The position numbers were made by a program, and so were the translations under genes. Below the pieces are notes generated by a model. It was not told the origin of the DNA. It saw nothing but the letters and a program-made list of their open reading frames with translations, and searched no databases. Shown piece after piece: positions 36,017-44,928 of a stretch of DNA of 45,329 nt (the stretch's first letter is position 1; each line of letters opens with the position of its first letter). Source of the DNA: a virus (Duplodnaviria; Heunggongvirae; Uroviricota; Caudoviricetes); IMG/VR virus record IMGVR_UViG_2541047734_000008, positions 1 through 45,329 of that record. The stretch is one strand, 5' to 3'.

Positions 36017-36092
<76 letters not shown>

Positions 36093-36094
36093 AT

Positions 36095-36171
<77 letters not shown>

Positions 36172-36172
36172 A

Positions 36173-36249
36173 CTGGACCGCCACCGGGGACTCGAACCTC
36201 GCACACTCAACTTAAAGGGTTGACGCTCTTTCCTGATGAGCTAGTGGCG
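36173..36249 (-). tRNA. Atypical tRNA-like gene, anticodon UUU (Lys) by position, with C at position 33
   Basis: Acceptor CCGCCAC/GTGGCGG, anticodon stem TCAAC/GTTGA, loop CCTTTAA, T-loop TTCGAGT with one T-stem mismatch, CCA encoded. Confidence 0.5.
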
Positions 36250-36250
36250 G

Positions 36251-36326
36251 CTGGTGGCCCTTGCTGGATTTGAACCAGCGACCTGGCGATTATGAGTCGC
36301 TCGCTCTCACCACTGAGCTAAAGGGC
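36251..36326 (-). tRNA. tRNA with CAU anticodon (Met or lysidine-modified Ile2)
   Basis: Acceptor GGCCCTT/AAGGGCC, anticodon loop CTCATAA, T-loop TTCAAAT, CCA encoded. Confidence 0.75.
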
Positions 36327-36430
36327 CGGGCGCAGGATAATAACGTTACGAAATCAATGTTGCAAGCATTCAAAAATCACCCTTATCTCCTCCACTAGCG
36401 CATTCACCATGTCTATCCGAGATAAGTGGC

Positions 36431-37579: not shown

Positions 37580-38557
37580 TTACCCAAGCACGCCAGTTGC
37601 AAAGGCGTGATCAAGAAAACGAAAAATTAAATCAACCTGAGAACCATGCTTTTCTTCGAACGCCAGAGGATCCGCATGAAGCTCGTTGTGATGCTCCCGA
37701 CACAGCGGTAGCGTGAAAATATCGTGAGATTTTGTCCCCATTCCGCCCTGACCATGACCAATCAGGTGATGGGGATCGTCGGCTGGCTTACCACAACACG
37801 CACACGGCTGTGTCTTCACCCAGCGTGTGTATTTCTCGTTAACCCAGCGGCGACGTTTAGGTCGTTTCATGAAAGATTCCGGAGACTCAGGATCAACGGC
37901 AATGCTGACCACCGTCTTTTCCTGTGGTGGGTTCTGTTGCTGGTGGGCGTGAGGCAGCGGCGCAAGATTTTTTGTGCGCTGTTTCAGTATGCTGGTGGCG
38001 GTCTGCTCTCCCGGTACGATGTCGCTTTCACGGTACATTGAGCGGATTTTTTCCGCACGCAACCCCAGCGAACGACGTAATACCGCTTCCGGTAGCGCGT
38101 CCGCCACCTGATTGCGGACCGCCCACCAGGATAATTCAGCCAGAGATAATTCACGCTCCTGCGTACCGCTTATTGCGTGACCGATGACGTCAATCATCCA
38201 TGCTGACAGGTTTTGATGAGCAAGTTGCTCGAGTGATTCGGATGTCTGGTCACGCAACTGGTTGTCGCAGTGCCAGCACAACACCATTGCGCCGGTACCA
38301 TAACGGTGAATGACGGTTTCGCTGTGATGATAATCGCCGTGTGGCCACTGGCAGGATTTAATATGGCGCAACAGCCAGTCAGACAATGCACCAGCACCAC
38401 CAGCAGCACGAATCACCCGTGCGTTACTGAAAAACGGCAGCAATGTTTTGTCTTCCACCAGCGGCTGGCGAACGGCAGGAACGACCCCGGACGGCAGATT
38501 ACGCATGCTTTTCGGTTCAGGCTCCACCAGCACTCGAGGGTTATGAAATACTTGCAT
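37580..38557 (-). CDS. DUF968-family prophage protein (YdfU-like), C-terminal HNH-like Cys/His cluster
   Basis: Start placed at internal Met (MQVFHNPRV..); ..CACCGKPADDPHHLIGHGQGGMGTKSHDIFTLPLCREHHNELH..; the ORF track's longer start at 38701 is possible. Confidence 0.6.
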   Translation of the reverse strand: MQVFHNPRVLVEPEPKSMRNLPSGVVPAVRQPLVEDKTLLPFFSNARVIRAAGGAGALSDWLLRHIKSCQWPHGDYHHSETVIHRYGTGAMVLCWHCDNQLRDQTSESLEQLAHQNLSAWMIDVIGHAISGTQERELSLAELSWWAVRNQVADALPEAVLRRSLGLRAEKIRSMYRESDIVPGEQTATSILKQRTKNLAPLPHAHQQQNPPQEKTVVSIAVDPESPESFMKRPKRRRWVNEKYTRWVKTQPCACCGKPADDPHHLIGHGQGGMGTKSHDIFTLPLCREHHNELHADPLAFEEKHGSQVDLIFRFLDHAFATGVLG

Positions 38558-38630
38558 GGATTCACAGCCCGGCCTAAGGACCACAAGCCCGAGTTCCGGT
38601 ACCAGAACAGGTCGAAGTAATATCCGCACG

Positions 38631-38903
38631 TTACCTCCAGATCCGTTGCTGGTATGTGCGGGATGGGCGCGGTGGGCGTTCGGAATAAGGGAGCCTGACA
38701 TAGATTATCCAGTGACGATAATCGAGGCTGAGGGCTTTCTTAATCTCGTATCCGCGTCTGCTGTAGTTATGAATTAGCCATTCGGCCTGTTCTTCAGTAC
38801 ATGGTGGGTGTTGGTACCAGTCGGTTTTAAATGCGTGTGAACGCCGCTCATGCCGGATGGCAAGGTCGGTATCAGAATTGTGAAATTTGGTTTTGTGCGC
38901 CAT
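38631..38903 (-). CDS. Hypothetical prophage protein
   Basis: 90 aa ORF upstream of the DUF968 gene. Confidence 0.4.
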   Translation of the reverse strand: MAHKTKFHNSDTDLAIRHERRSHAFKTDWYQHPPCTEEQAEWLIHNYSRRGYEIKKALSLDYRHWIIYVRLPYSERPPRPSRTYQQRIWR

Positions 38904-39070: not shown

Positions 39071-39226
39071 TTACTCCTCAGGTTCGTAAGCTGTGAAGAC
39101 AGCGACCTCCGTCTGGCCGGTTCGGATTCGTACCTCGCAGAGGTCTTTCCTCGTTACCAGTGCCGTCACAATGACGGTTAAACAGATGACGATCAGGGCG
39201 ATTAACATCGCCTTTTGCTGCTTCAT
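39071..39226 (-). CDS. hokD: Hok/Gef-family membrane toxin (HokD/RelF-like)
   Basis: MKQQKAMLIALIVICLTVIVTALVTRKDLCEVRIRTGQTEVAVFTAYEPEE: TM helix plus conserved Cys and Hok-family C-terminus. Confidence 0.85.
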   Translation of the reverse strand: MKQQKAMLIALIVICLTVIVTALVTRKDLCEVRIRTGQTEVAVFTAYEPEE

Positions 39227-39463
39227 AGCCTGCTTCTCCTTGCCTTTCGGCACGTAAGAGGCTAACCTAGATTTGCCGTTCATAGATTGAGCCTCAGATT
39301 AATGTTAAGCGTCTTGCCGGACGCGTAATGTTAACTGGGGCTTTTCTCTATCTGCCTTTCAGTGTTCATGCCTGAGACAGATAGCCTCAAGCACCCGCAG
39401 CCATTCTACTTAACTCACGTCACCTCGCCAATATGAAATCAATCAGAAAGGTGATCCATAAAA

Positions 39464-40150
39464 TCACTCCTTCTCTTCTTTTCCGTAGTGGAGTTGGCCA
39501 ATTTTGATAAGAGGGCGTCCCTGAGATTTGCGGTGTAGATTGGTATCGCGCAGAGAATACACACAGCCACAATATTCCTGCTGATAGAATTTTTCGCGCT
39601 TGCTGATTTCAATCATACGGGACGAGCCGCCCTGCTTGCGCCAGTTATAATCCCAGTACACCATACCCGGATAATGCGCAACAGCTCGCCGCCCACACTC
39701 GTTAACCTGCTGCATATTTTTCCAGCGTGAAATGCCCAGTGAACTGCTGATCACACTGAAACCATTTTCAGCAGCGTACAACGCTGTCCGCTCAAAACGC
39801 ATGTCAAAACACATGGTACAACGGATCCCCCTCTCAGGCTCCCATTCCATTCCTTTGGCACGTTCAAACCAGTTGTCGGTGTCGTAATCAGCATCGATAA
39901 ACGGCACGCCGTGTTGTTCAGCAAAGCGAATATTTTCATCCTTACGAATTAAATACTCTTTCTGAGGATGAATGTTCGGGTTGTAGAAAAAGATGGTGTA
40001 GTCGATTCCCGAGGCCTGAAGCGCCTCCATCACTTCACCGGAACATGGAGCACAGCAAGAGTGCAGTAGTAGTTTGTTTGCCCCGTTTGGGAGCTCCAAT
40101 TTAGGCCGTTTGAAATCAGCAATAGTCATAAATATTTTTATTGGGGTCAT
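39464..40150 (-). CDS. QueH-like epoxyqueuosine reductase homolog (DUF208)
   Basis: 228 aa; ..[13 protein letters not shown].. Cys motif and further conserved Cys (..CTMCFDMR.., ..YCGCVYS..) typical of QueH. Confidence 0.6.
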
Positions 40151-40303
40151 GAAAATAGCACAGAGTGTAGCATCAGAGCAGGGCTATCGGGAATATATGT
40201 CTAAATCTGGTAATATCTGGTTTTGACGCAAAGCGGACAACCACGCTGGCTCTACCCTGCGCCATGAAAATGTCAATTCACATCTGAACTAATGCTCTTT
40301 AAT

Positions 40304-40729
40304 CTAGTAACGTCTAAAATACCTAACATTTCCTTGATAAAATGCCAGTACACGCTGCATAGCTTCGCTCTTCCGGCACTCGCGACAGATTATATTCAGG
40401 CGCCTGTCGTAGCGGCGTATTTCGCCGTCTGGTAACGACCAGATAAGGTCCGGATCAACCACTGCAGGTTTCTTCACCTTTGCCCTTGAGAGTTTTTTGC
40501 GGGCATTTTGCCAGTCCTTACGCGCCTGTTCAGACGGGAATAACCCGTAACCAGAGTTGTATACATCGCCGCTGGCAACCAGCTCTCTTGCGAGAACGCT
40601 CATCAGATATCTTGTCGCACCTGTCTTGACTTCCAGTTGCCGTAACGTCTCACGCCCACTCTGGCGTACGAGTTCAACAACCTGTCCTTTAATTTTTTCC
40701 CGCTCTTCTTGTGTAAAAACTTTTGCCAC
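40304..40729 (-). CDS. Hypothetical phage protein (early region)
   Basis: 141 aa ORF downstream of the replication gene. Confidence 0.4.
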   Translation of the reverse strand: MAKVFTQEEREKIKGQVVELVRQSGRETLRQLEVKTGATRYLMSVLARELVASGDVYNSGYGLFPSEQARKDWQNARKKLSRAKVKKPAVVDPDLIWSLPDGEIRRYDRRLNIICRECRKSEAMQRVLAFYQGNVRYFRRY

Positions 40730-40769
40730 AAGCCCTCCTGAAAATTACCTCATGACCAGAAATTAACAC

Positions 40770-41870
40770 TTACCCCCTGAAGCCCGGCGGAATTTCGTTA
40801 TCCGGTTCAGAAATATGATTCACACAACGCTGGTTGTTCGTGCCGCTTACCGGGAGCAACCAGGGGTTCTCAAAATTCCGGTCCGGTCCAAAAAACGTCG
40901 TCGCTCGCTGAACAAATTCCGTTCCCGTTTTCCCGGTAGCCGCCAAGTATCTTGCGTAACGCCTCACGCCATCCAGCATGGCCTCTGGTGGCACCCCCTC
41001 GCGTAATCTGGCCTTCCAGGCACTGAAAGCGGATTTCTTCGGGTTTGCTCCGGCACGCAACGGGTACTCCCGCCAGACCTGTTCGAACACATCCGGATAA
41101 TCCACTCGTCCCACAGACTGCCCGGTGTTTTCCGGGACTACCCGATCAGCTTCCCGCTGAATGGCGGAATCGGCTTCCCGCTGAATGGCGGAATCGGCTT
41201 CGGGCTGCTGCAGTTGGTGTGATTGCTCCAGCCTTGCGGTCATCACCTGCTGCACAGCGCCCGAATCGGCTTTCAGCGCATACGCTGAATCGGCTTCCGG
41301 TGTCGTGCCTGCTGGCTGACCAAGATTGACGGTCTGAACATCCCCTGCCTGGTTCGTGGCGTTTTTTACGCCATGGACCATAGTGTTTTGATCTTCTTGA
41401 TCTGTATCTTTATCTGTATCTTTATCTGTCGTGACTCGTCGTGACATGTGCGTGACATTTCGTGACGCGCCGTGACAATCGCCATTTTGTTCCCGCTTTC
41501 TTTCCCTCTCTCGCTGCGCCCTCTTGCGCTCTGCAGGAGATTTTGCGGTTTGCGAAATATTGCCGTTGTCCTCTTTAAGCACCTGGCGTTTTTCCCATCC
41601 AGTGATTAAATCACCATCAAGTACCCGCCCCTGCATCGTCTGCAAAATTGAATCAATTACCTCTTCTGTCACGTCGAGCGCACTTGCCAAATCTTCTGTC
41701 GTGACATCAATGTGACCTCGCGTGACATTTCGTGACGCGCTCACCAGGAGGTGGATATACACTGCCATCACTGTTGCAATTGGCTGCCCTGACACCCTGG
41801 CAATTGTTCGCCACTTAGGGTCATTTGGCATGTCATGCCATAATCTGAGCCAGGCGTTAGCCATACTCAC
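40770..41870 (-). CDS. Replication initiation protein (O-like; DnaT-like C-terminal domain) with internal repeats
   Basis: 366 aa; N-terminal HTH-like region, acidic repeat-containing linker, C-terminal ..FSAWKARLREGVPPEAMLDGVRRYARYLAATGK.. primosomal DnaT-like. Confidence 0.6.
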   Translation of the reverse strand: MSMANAWLRLWHDMPNDPKWRTIARVSGQPIATVMAVYIHLLVSASRNVTRGHIDVTTEDLASALDVTEEVIDSILQTMQGRVLDGDLITGWEKRQVLKEDNGNISQTAKSPAERKRAQRERERKREQNGDCHGASRNVTHMSRRVTTDKDTDKDTDQEDQNTMVHGVKNATNQAGDVQTVNLGQPAGTTPEADSAYALKADSGAVQQVMTARLEQSHQLQQPEADSAIQREADSAIQREADRVVPENTGQSVGRVDYPDVFEQVWREYPLRAGANPKKSAFSAWKARLREGVPPEAMLDGVRRYARYLAATGKTGTEFVQRATTFFGPDRNFENPWLLPVSGTNNQRCVNHISEPDNEIPPGFRG

Positions 41871-41935
41871 CTCTTCTGATACCGAATCTTTTTACTCACG
41901 AGTTGCCGGAAGCGATTCGATATGGCTATTGTCAG

Positions 41936-42361
41936 TCAATGTACTGCCACAGCATTTCCTGCCGGGCCACCACGGTTCATCTGATTGAAACCGGCGATTG
42001 CCACTGCGACAAAATCATCAGCGTCTCTCACCAGTCGCTCCCGCGTCTCCACCAGCTCCCGAAAATAAGCTGAACTGTGGCTGCGCATTCTGGCCACCAG
42101 CAAAGGTGGCATTGCCTTTTCGATCGCTGGTAACAACGCCTGAATTTTTTCAACTGCATCAGGGGTGTCTTTCTCTACCCAGCGGAAAATTTTCTGGGTA
42201 TTGCGAGCCAGGGCTTCCGGATGGCTGTCGTCATACAGTTCTGGGAACGTCATACCCAGTTCAAAATAAGCCCTGGTTATTTCAGCTGCCGGAACTTTTT
42301 CACCGTCCGGATGCGCCCAGGCATTCATCGCCATGCGGATGTGTTCATGCTTGATTTTCAT
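41936..42361 (-). CDS. YdaT-like regulatory protein (cII-position analog)
   Basis: 141 aa, MKIKHEHIRMAMNAW..; between cro-like and O-like genes. Confidence 0.5.
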   Translation of the reverse strand: MKIKHEHIRMAMNAWAHPDGEKVPAAEITRAYFELGMTFPELYDDSHPEALARNTQKIFRWVEKDTPDAVEKIQALLPAIEKAMPPLLVARMRSHSSAYFRELVETRERLVRDADDFVAVAIAGFNQMNRGGPAGNAVAVH

Positions 42362-42626
42362 GAATCAAGCTCCTAGAAAGTGGTTGTGTTAACGTTTTGG
42401 TATCTTCCAGCTCGGGCCAAATATTCATCCAATCAAAAGGCCTTAGTTGCTGACGTGTAACTTCACCATTACTGGCTCGCTCAATAAGGACGCATAACGA
42501 TGCCCCTAACACTTGACCTTTACTCAATGCCTTTCTTAGATAACCGATGCTGGTACCACACTCGCATGCAAACATACGCTGTTCATCTGACGAAAGAGAA
42601 TTGAGAAATATTCTTAATTCTTCCAT
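42345..42626 (-). CDS. Cro/YdaS-like HTH regulator
   Basis: 93 aa, ..CGTSIGYLRKALSKGQ.. HTH; divergent from the repressor gene. Confidence 0.6.
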   Translation of the reverse strand: MEELRIFLNSLSSDEQRMFACECGTSIGYLRKALSKGQVLGASLCVLIERASNGEVTRQQLRPFDWMNIWPELEDTKTLTQPLSRSLIHENQA

Positions 42627-42653
42627 AGCTACTCCTTAGTAAACACAGTAAAG

Positions 42654-42733
42654 AATACCCACAGGTAAACAAAAGTCAATACCCACAGGTTGTTTACCTT
42701 GCGGTAATCGCATCTATTATTTACCTATGGACA
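42654..42733. promoter_or_regulatory. Divergent promoter/operator region of the immunity switch with repeated TACC-N4-GGTA sites
   Basis: AATACCCACAGGT at 42654..42666 and 42679..42691; TACCTATGG overlapping the repressor start codon. Confidence 0.55.
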
Positions 42734-43146
42734 AATATGAATTTAGACGACAGCAACTCATCAAAATTCGTGATGAGAAATGCGATGGTAAAGCGGTTAA
42801 CGTGGCCAGAAAGATCGGGCGCGAGCCTTCTTATGTATCAAGAATGTTGTACCCAGAGGGGAAAAAGGGAAAAAAACGGATCGCTGATGATATGGTGGAG
42901 ATTATCGAAGAGTCCTTTGGGTTACCCCGGGGATGGATGGATGGTATCGTTTCATCATCAACGAACACAGCCTCCAGTTATGAAACAAGGGTTCTAACGC
43001 CACGACAACGTATTTTTTTAGATCTCTTAGACGAACTGCCAGAAAGTGAAGCGGATAACTTATTAAAAACTCTTGAAGAGAAAAAACAGTATTACAATAT
43101 GATCTACGAAGAAATCCGTAAAAAGAAAGCACAAAACGCATCATAG
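42727..43146 (+). CDS. DicA-like HTH repressor
   Basis: 139 aa; HTH ..AVNVARKIGREPSYVSRML..; C-terminus ..FLDLLDELPESEADNLLKTLEE.. resembles DicA. Confidence 0.65.
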   Translation: MDKYEFRRQQLIKIRDEKCDGKAVNVARKIGREPSYVSRMLYPEGKKGKKRIADDMVEIIEESFGLPRGWMDGIVSSSTNTASSYETRVLTPRQRIFLDLLDELPESEADNLLKTLEEKKQYYNMIYEEIRKKKAQNAS

Positions 43147-43225: not shown

Positions 43226-43411
43226 TCCTTCTTTTCATACCAACCCACCCCGCCCCACAGAATGCAGGGCAATACTTCGAGTTACCAGGCAGTGGTCAGG
43301 GGTTAAGTAGCCAGCCCGAGGCGTAAGAACATGACGGCAGGGTTCAACTTTAATAACTATGCAGCAGGTTTTTGTTCCGCTACCCCAGCGTTAAGGGGAA
43401 ATGAGGTCAGC

Positions 43412-43567
43412 ATGGATACTATCGATCTTGGCAACAACGAATCTCTGGTGTACGGCGTGTTTCCCAACCAGGACGGCACGTTCACCGCGATGACGTATAC
43501 CAAAAGCAAAACGTTTAAAACCGAAAATGGTGCCCGTCGCTGGCTGGAAAGAAACTCAGGTGAGTGA
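43412..43567 (+). CDS. YdfA-like small protein
   Basis: 51 aa from MDTIDLGNNESLVYGVFPNQDG..; GAGG RBS 6 nt upstream. Confidence 0.6.
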   Translation: MDTIDLGNNESLVYGVFPNQDGTFTAMTYTKSKTFKTENGARRWLERNSGE

Positions 43568-44875: not shown

Positions 44876-44928
44876 TTTCTGGTGACGTTTGGCGGTATCA
44901 GTTTTACTCCGTGACTGCTCTGCCGCCC
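44876..44928 (+). ncRNA. dicF: DicF-like small RNA (cell-division inhibitor sRNA of Qin-type prophages)
   Basis: TTTCTGGTGACGTTTGGCGGTATCAGTTTTACTCCGTGACTGCTCTGCCGCCC followed by TTTTT matches the remembered DicF sequence; context ydfA-ydfB-ydfC upstream. Confidence 0.7.

Follow-up and report, generated by a model that had tools for sequence, protein, structure and literature searches.

The DNA examined here, hereafter called the window, is the whole IMG/VR virus record IMGVR_UViG_2541047734_000008 (Caudoviricetes; 45,329 nt). It is an Escherichia coli prophage, and the subject of this work is its replication initiator gene together with the short repeats carried inside that gene, which are assessed as a candidate origin of replication (table 1). 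With respect to the start of the gene, its relatives begin at MANAW. The product matches the PHROG family phrog_3729, "replication initiation protein," from end to end (E 1.2e-252; residues 3-366 aligned with positions 1-356 of the 356-position profile). Its layout consists of a predicted DNA-binding domain at the N-terminus (N-domain), a disordered linker and a C-terminal domain (C-domain).

Two arrays of the word GTCACG, which reads CGTGAC on the plus strand, are found in the gene. In array A, the plus-strand words start at 41430, 41440, 41451, 41461, and 41471, that is, with a spacing of 10, 11, 10, and 10 bp. Array B is located about 265 bp away and encodes the end of helix 3 and the loop 46-55 of the N-domain; its words occupy 41731-41736, 41721-41726, 41712-41716 (GTGAC only on the plus strand), and 41700-41705. 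Both arrays encode the peptide ASRNVT, and the 21-mer GCGTGACATTTCGTGACGCGC exists in exactly two copies, at 41450-41470 and 41720-41740, 270 bp from each other.

The initial annotation of this DNA had listed three sets of repeats, all of which are present in the sequence at slightly different coordinates. Its cluster of CGTGAC(A) heptamers at 41401..41480 exists, but the conserved core of the word is a hexamer, asymmetric, with weakly conserved flanks and a single orientation within each array. Likewise, the second copy of the 21-mer, placed at 41723..41743 and about 275 bp away, is genuine at the position given above, and it belongs to array B, which had been described incompletely.

The hexamer CGTGAC as such is not enriched in the window (28 copies on both strands vs. 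20.9 +/- 4.2 in shuffles), and 8 of its 17 plus-strand copies are located inside 41430-41736. The phased pattern GTGAC-N4-6-GTGAC-N4-6-GTGAC appears five times, always within arrays A and B, and is absent from each of 100 shuffles.

The GC content of the gene reaches its minimum (27.5%) at 41380-41419, in the AT-rich run next to array A. On the gene strand, the 12-mer of this run reads GATAAAGATACA and encodes the peptide DKDT, and the coding strand of the run is rich in purines. Read on the plus strand as ATCTGTATCTTT, and with GATC close by, the 12-mers bear a resemblance to the T-rich 13-mers known from oriC. A scan for promoters and terminators gave nothing above the shuffles, the one "promoter" match being merely two iteron words, and neither DnaA boxes (up to one mismatch) nor the IHF consensus were found in 40200-42800.

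Table 1. Initiator gene of the window, its repeats and the regions coding for its domains (TRF, Tandem Repeats Finder; ORF, open reading frame)
Feature	Position	Strand	Remarks
Replication initiator gene	40770..41864	minus	364 aa from ATG at 41864; in-frame GTG at 41870; from the ORF list
Iteron array A, five GTCACG	41430..41476	minus	gene nt 389, 399, 409, 420, 430; linker-coding region
Iteron array B, four GTCAC(G)	41700..41736	minus	gene nt 129, 139, 149, 160; codons 43-55 (ASRNVTRGHIDVT)
Single inverted word, GTCACG	41668..41673	plus	equals GTGAC at gene nt 193
AT-rich run, candidate DNA-unwinding element (DUE)	41383..41429	.	adjoins array A; three ATCTGTATCTTT 12-mers, two GATC sites
12-bp tandem, ATCTGTATCTTT-type	41395-41429		2.9 copies; array A directly after
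Inverted repeat, 13-pair stem, 5-nt loop	41350..41380	.	far side of AT-rich run from array A
24-bp in-frame tandem, unit CTTCCCGCTGAATGGCGGAATCGG	41145..41201	minus	TRF: period 24, 2.4 copies, 96% matches; EADSAIQR twice
Four 11-bp GAAGCCGATTC words	41167..41297	minus	plus-strand starts 41167, 41191, 41263, 41287; encode (E/K)ADS in linker
N-domain coding region, aa 1-95	41580..41864	minus	predicted winged-helix-like; shared by 52 diverse loci; words travel with module
C-domain coding region, aa ~250-364	40770..41117	minus	shared with phages 75/02 (Stx phage), mEp460, ST64B; exchanged as module

Conservation of the hexamer words and of the AT-rich run

Two sets of relatives were used. For the first, one genome per species was scanned, which gave 52 loci encoding the N-domain with 50-99% identity; their hosts are Enterobacterales, Pseudomonas, Bordetella, Acidovorax, Chromobacterium, and others, that is, the loci represent prophages of gamma- and beta-proteobacteria. 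For the second, a scan of viral contigs gave 80 near-identical copies of the E. coli type, and 78 readable close relatives served for the repeat counts.

GTCAC occupies nt 129, 139, 149, and 160 of the gene, and recurs at about nt 389-430, in about 25 of the 52 loci, which come from different species. Pseudomonas phage phita81A and Aeromonas phage pAEv1818, whose sequences were read directly, also carry both arrays at equivalent positions of the gene. The hexamer arrays are thus kept in distant relatives, which answers the comparison with related phages that had been proposed as a check; the 24-bp repeat does not stand up to this comparison (see below). The inverted GTGAC at nt 193 is present in most loci of the GTCACG class, and the third position of codon 65 shows only 0.55 bits of entropy.

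Array A comprises 85 words in 23 loci, with 3-5 words per locus and a spacing of 10 bp (54 times) or 11 bp (8 times). Its start varies from nt 379 to nt 479 among the loci, and the distance between the two arrays shifts by tens of bp.

In the case of array B, which is located in the N-domain, synonymous sites were examined through the entropy of third codon positions over 21 diverged loci, at invariant four-fold codons. Codons 47, 48, 50, 51, 54, and 55, all within the words, have an entropy of 0.00 bits, whereas the spacer codons 49 and 52 reach 1.74 and 2.00 bits and the invariant four-fold codons elsewhere in the N-domain 1.5-1.96 bits, i.e., they are saturated. Since third positions are frozen only inside the words, the selection appears to act on the hexamers themselves, and an explanation at the level of the peptide is excluded. 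The words are almost certainly under selection at the level of DNA.

The ASRNVT peptide, common to both arrays of the window, could suggest that the hexamer repeats simply result from a repeated peptide, from codon bias or by chance. However, the 85 words of array A fall in the three reading frames in about equal numbers (25, 31, and 29), the words persist among loci whose linker peptides differ, and the synonymous sites are frozen inside the words only. Together with the absence of the phased pattern from all 100 shuffles, these data leave such an origin of the repeats with a negligible probability.

More distant homologues have another word at both places: five loci carry GTAACG/GAAACG, and about eleven carry (C)GAACGC. 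For most loci, the non-AT 6-mer that is most frequent in the linker occurs 2-5 times in the 78-nt stretch of array B and no more than once in the remainder of the ORF. In a fourth group (L028, L031, and L041), neither place has a repeated word. The word changes jointly in the two arrays, as expected of sites that one protein reads.

The words travel with the N-domain, which is their only constant partner; C-domains and neighboring genes, including those of regulators, differ among the loci. For instance, locus L099 combines the same N-domain and words with another C-domain, and the junction is located directly after the AT-rich run.

Across loci, the AT-rich run was taken to be the 42 nt that follow the last word, whatever their composition; this positional definition replaced a codon test selected by composition, which was circular. 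These 42 nt are AT-richer than the ORF in all 41 loci (41/41; mean 69% vs. 45%), also in high-GC hosts, in which the ORF has only 32-40% AT, and the coding strand of the run is 75% purine. The ratio of GAT to GAC codons is 130:4 in the run and 384:430 elsewhere, and the motif AGATAA persists also in some loci that read it in another frame (L010, L016, L026, and L033). Like the words, the AT-richness is under selection as DNA. Among near-identical E. coli prophages (L057-L136), the number of DKDT 12-mers ranges from about one to more than four, and hence the candidate unwinding element behaves like a microsatellite.

After the AT-rich run, hairpin scores are higher than in control segments (6.15 vs. 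5.06 in 39 loci), but a hairpin is not universal. A search for a conserved palindrome at this place, modelled on an inverted repeat to the right of the AT-rich region of lambda, which PMC6022878 does not mention, found no universal one. The hairpin of the window is a possible counterpart of the palindromes of the relatives and possibly a further component of the origin.

Many relatives with another C-domain (L002 at ~2455-2495, L007, L008, L011, L018, and L026) show a C5-6...G5 inverted repeat right after the run, CCCCCCTTACCCCCCTGAGGGGG, which encodes PPYPPEG-like peptides. Long perfect hairpins are located there in L019 (11 bp), L021 (9 bp), and L036 (9 bp).

A candidate origin inside the initiator gene

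The phased GTCACG arrays and the AT-rich run of 12-mers probably form a prophage replication origin placed within its own initiator gene. This reading is favored because of the selection at the DNA level, the conservation in distant relatives and a layout like that of lambda ori. A prophage origin inside the gene had already been proposed in the initial annotation, and on these grounds the proposal is supported for the hexamer arrays and the 12-mers and not for the 24-bp repeat of the linker (see below).

In the lambda record, four iterons are located at nt 349-433 of gene O, followed by an A-rich stretch. An O dimer occupies each iteron, and a 39-bp region of high AT content is present (PMC6022878). 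As in lambda, the elements of the window are inside the initiator gene, in the linker part between the regions coding for the N- and C-domains: array A and the AT-rich run cover nt 389-480 of the 1095-nt gene, downstream of the part for the folded N-domain (aa 1-95) and upstream of that for the C-domain. In both phages, some 40 bp of AT-rich sequence with a coding strand rich in purines come downstream of a row of repeats (here nt 389-435), the initiator gene is preceded by cro- and cII-like genes and followed by a ren-like gene, and the C-domain is exchanged as a module.

On the other hand, the N-domain has no detectable homology to O (hhalign of the N-domain profile, probability 0.05%; no Pfam match). 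The words of the window are asymmetric direct repeats of 6-8 bp placed every 10-11 bp, whereas the lambda iterons are dyad-symmetric, 18 bp long and about 20-24 bp apart. A second array inside the N-domain coding sequence and the lack of a P-like or DnaC-like loader gene after the initiator are further differences. The gene can therefore be called O-like by analogy, not by homology, and the earlier statement that the origin is embedded in the same way as in lambda applies to the intragenic layout and not to the nature of the repeats.

The oriL of phage SPP1 is embedded in gene 38, with boxes bound by G38P and a DUE, and G38P binds two separate regions (PMC5737612). The window resembles it in having the candidate origin in the initiator's own gene, short repeated boxes, an adjoining AT-rich candidate DUE and an initiator without an AAA+ domain. 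Unlike SPP1 and the Firmicute replisome organisers, the initiator of the window has no Pfam replisome-organiser match at E <= 0.01, and the hosts are proteobacterial. Moreover, the phage of the window brings no helicase or loader of its own, and its arrays are about 265 bp apart in one gene, whereas oriL and oriR of SPP1 are at distant places.

Iteron plasmid origins of the P1 and pPS10 type, which are served by winged-helix Rep proteins, usually have iterons of 17-22 bp outside the rep coding sequence. The common features with the window are direct repeats in one orientation and at helical spacing beside an AT-rich region, an initiator predicted to be winged-helix-like, and a second set of iterons as a possible control element. 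On the contrary, the words of the window are inside the initiator gene, no sequence match or significant structural match to a plasmid Rep was found, and a DnaA box is missing from 40200-42800.

In the mechanism that we infer for the firing of this origin, several copies of the initiator would bind the hexamer words through their winged-helix-like N-domain, and the words, given their spacing of 10-11 bp, would face one side of the helix. The complex on array A, perhaps joined by array B through looping or wrapping of the ~265 bp between them, would stress the DNA so that the AT-rich run at 41383-41429 opens. The C-domain with its DnaT-like tail would then bring in the DnaB/DnaC helicase system of the host. 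The loading machinery of the host is invoked because no phage loader gene is present: in the window, no P-like or DnaC-like gene comes after the initiator, only a DUF977/Ren-like gene.

The role of array B allows for an alternative that partly overlaps with the above reading and is possible, though clearly less probable. Only array A and the AT-rich run would be the origin proper, and array B would be accessory, acting in copy control or handcuffing, in autoregulation or as a second weak origin. An AT-rich run adjoins array A but not array B, the distance between the two varies by tens of bp, so that a strict helical phasing between the arrays is not kept, and the binding of G38P to two separate regions of SPP1 is a parallel (PMC5737612). 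The fact that the arrays are kept, changed or lost jointly in all word classes fits a single unit and an accessory equally well.

It could also be argued that the arrays are protein-binding sites of a regulatory kind, i.e., operators for autorepression or roadblock, or sites of some other phage or host protein, with the origin located elsewhere. Selection at the DNA level and covariation prove only that something reads the words, a protein bound to array B, some 130 nt from the start of the gene, could influence transcription, and iteron plasmids use extra sets of iterons for control. Nevertheless, the AT-rich run follows array A immediately in 41 of 41 loci and has the look of an unwinding element, with no obvious role in an operator. 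In addition, the sole constant partner of the words is the initiator N-domain while the neighboring regulators differ, there is no other phased array in the 45-kb window, and the layout agrees with two experimentally defined intragenic origins. A purely regulatory function is thus considered improbable.

Several points weigh against the placement of the origin within the initiator gene. Both the binding of the initiator to the words and the initiation in this region are deduced by comparison. The step of helicase recruitment draws on a similarity of 24 residues, far below the cut-off of the DnaT family. The winged helix is a tentative assignment from the order of secondary-structure elements and weak Foldseek matches, and the recognition helix is a predicted one (aa 67-77) whose sequence differs between loci with the same word. 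Array B is located in a conserved segment of the protein, and the conservation of its position is partly confounded with that of the protein, although the pattern of the synonymous sites argues against protein conservation as the cause. Gene conversion could help to keep the word identical in both arrays, which share the exact 21-mer in the window. Finally, the hairpin of the window is weak and not exceptional.

An origin inside the initiator gene is a textbook arrangement, and the present case extends a known principle without overturning any. No description of these words or of an origin of the phrog_3729 type was found in a literature search that included work on the replication region of Shiga toxin (Stx) phages and covered subscription journals poorly. 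About half of the complete E. coli genomes contain this initiator gene or a close relative of it, and the N-domain family extends to Pseudomonas and Aeromonas phages. The location of the candidate origin and of its recognition word provides a testable map of where replication would start in these prophages after induction, and the three word classes offer a way to type prophage replication specificity. The region is also a compact candidate ori/initiator pair for the building of vectors and a clean example of overlapping codes, in which the putative binding sites keep synonymous positions fixed and impose the sequence of a protein loop.

Repeats of the linker outside the candidate origin

The 24-bp tandem had been annotated as iteron-like at 41150..41210. 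The repeat is real, and its place is the one given in table 1, but its second copy is found in none of the 78 readable close relatives (each has one EADSAIQR copy or none). It is GC-rich and does not occur in relatives that share only the N-domain. From these comparisons, the 24-bp repeat appears as a recent in-frame duplication in a low-complexity linker, private to this allele and outside the origin.

Three copies of the 11-bp word GAAGCCGATTC exist in Stx phage 75/02, one of them in a different frame (KPIG instead of EADS), and the word was not found in other relatives with this C-domain. It is probably a repeat of the peptide or of slippage. That the 24-bp unit, or the GAAGCCGATTC word within it, serves as iterons is very unlikely, despite the near-perfect tandem (96%), the four copies of the 11-bp word in the window and the out-of-frame copy in 75/02. 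In addition to the missing second copy in all 78 close relatives, the GAAGCCGATTC copies of the window all share one frame, at distances that are multiples of 24, neither the Pseudomonas and Aeromonas relatives sharing the N-domain nor the other C-domain relatives have the word, and the repeat has no adjoining AT-rich run, with a GC content of about 60%.

The initiator protein, its relatives and the neighboring loci

The Pfam search of the initiator protein gave no family at E <= 0.01, and its similarity to the PHROG replisome-organiser families is weak (phrog_4880, E 4.4e-6; phrog_5968, E 2.7e-4). In NCBI, near-identical proteins are named "phage replisome organizer" and some relatives "DnaT-like ssDNA-binding domain-containing protein" (ssDNA, single-stranded DNA).

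An AlphaFold2 model of aa 1-125, built from 36 sequences (mean predicted local distance difference test score, pLDDT, 82), contains helices at 4-14, 16-25, and 29-45, the loop 46-55, helices at 56-63 and 67-77, and a beta-hairpin at about 78-87. Beyond the N-domain, a disordered stretch is followed by a basic helix at 110-124. The order of the elements in the model tentatively fits a winged helix-turn-helix. Foldseek gave nothing significant for the modelled N-domain against the PDB (best E 0.36), and the top weak matches were mostly winged-helix regulators of the MarR, CAP, and GntR types.

When the GTCACG and CGAACGC classes are compared, systematic residue changes within the folded N-domain are restricted to the loop, at positions 46, 47, 48, and 51 (NVT..H vs. 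ATE..R); other changes are found just after the domain, around aa 101-117 and in the basic helix. The words of array B encode this loop (aa 46-55, NVTRGHIDVT), and it is a speculative and rather doubtful idea that the loop itself reads them. If the loop were the determinant of specificity, one stretch of DNA would serve as the binding site and also encode the protein loop that reads it. Site and reader would then be altered together whenever the word changes, which could explain new origin specificities (incompatibility types) arising in one step. It is more likely that the loop is a tolerant passenger, with a sequence dictated by the DNA.

In some metagenomic homologues (P0040, P0058, P0071, P0095, and P0118), an HNH endonuclease domain (PF01844/PF14279) is fused straight to the N-domain. 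These proteins correspond to 41490-41864 of the window, and the HNH domain replaces the linker and the C-domain. Such a gene would encode a nuclease directed by the word, or else it would be degenerate or chimeric.

The last 24 aa of the initiator (40773-40844, minus strand; QRCVNHISEPDNEIPPGFRG) resemble the extreme C-terminus of the host DnaT (E 0.0032 to 6aep), and a sequence search of the PDB with the initiator gave only this tail and a spurious designed-repeat protein. Against the NCBIfam DnaT model (NF002770), the score is 19.5 bits, with a cut-off of 201, and only residues 343-366 align, on positions 156-179. Where the helicase is loaded, the C-terminal domain of DnaT assembles into filaments on ssDNA (PMC13377028). 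Compared with E. coli DnaT (primosomal protein I), the tail of the initiator is alike and the rest is unrelated by sequence search, and the connection to DnaB/DnaC would follow from this likeness. Because a DnaT-like tail is found here without a loader gene, while 75/02 with the same C-domain has a DnaC-like gene, a mimicry of DnaT to reach the helicase-loading system of the host is suggested.

The initiator gene was matched in 2699 of 5426 complete E. coli genomes, with at least 80% coverage in 1647. One E. coli genome, that of strain NDM1 (NZ_CP083888), has a 100% identical copy, and the closest genomes annotate the gene merely as "hypothetical protein." The whole gene is present, at 95-97% identity, in seven phage records, among them Tritos and Evi. 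Only the N-terminal part is shared with Pseudomonas and Aeromonas phages (about 70% DNA identity), and only the C-terminal part with Stx phages such as 75/02. The gene following the initiator homologue differs as well: it encodes a DnaC-like loader in 75/02 and pAEv1818 and a 609-aa protein in phita81A, and only a Ren-like protein in the window and in Tritos.

Upstream of the initiator gene are a CII/YdaT-like gene (41936-42361) and a Cro/YdaS-like gene (42345-42626), and downstream is the DUF977/Ren-like gene (40304-40729). The DicA-like repressor gene (42727-43146) is transcribed divergently. The small RNA DicF (44877-44928, plus strand; 76.7 bits) is located downstream of this gene and of a DUF1391 gene (43331-43567). 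Since DicF, the DicA-like repressor and the DUF1391 gene occur together, the immunity region is assigned by sequence to the Qin/Kim (dicA-dicF) type, as in phage Tritos.

The prophage carries a gene for QueH, epoxyqueuosine reductase (39464-40150, minus strand; PF02677, E 1.1e-65), immediately downstream of its replication genes, and a cluster of four tRNA genes is near it, at 36021-36327. A toxin-antitoxin locus of the hok/sok type occupies 39071-39396 on the minus strand, with Rfam sok at 39221-39396 (111.9 bits) and a Hok/Gef ORF of 70 aa at 39071-39283 (PF01848, E 3e-23). At 37580-38701 on the minus strand, a DUF968 protein is encoded (PF06147, E 5.3e-77), with a weak HNH-like match at its C-terminus (PF16784, E 1.1e-4); it presumably resembles YdfU of the Qin prophage.

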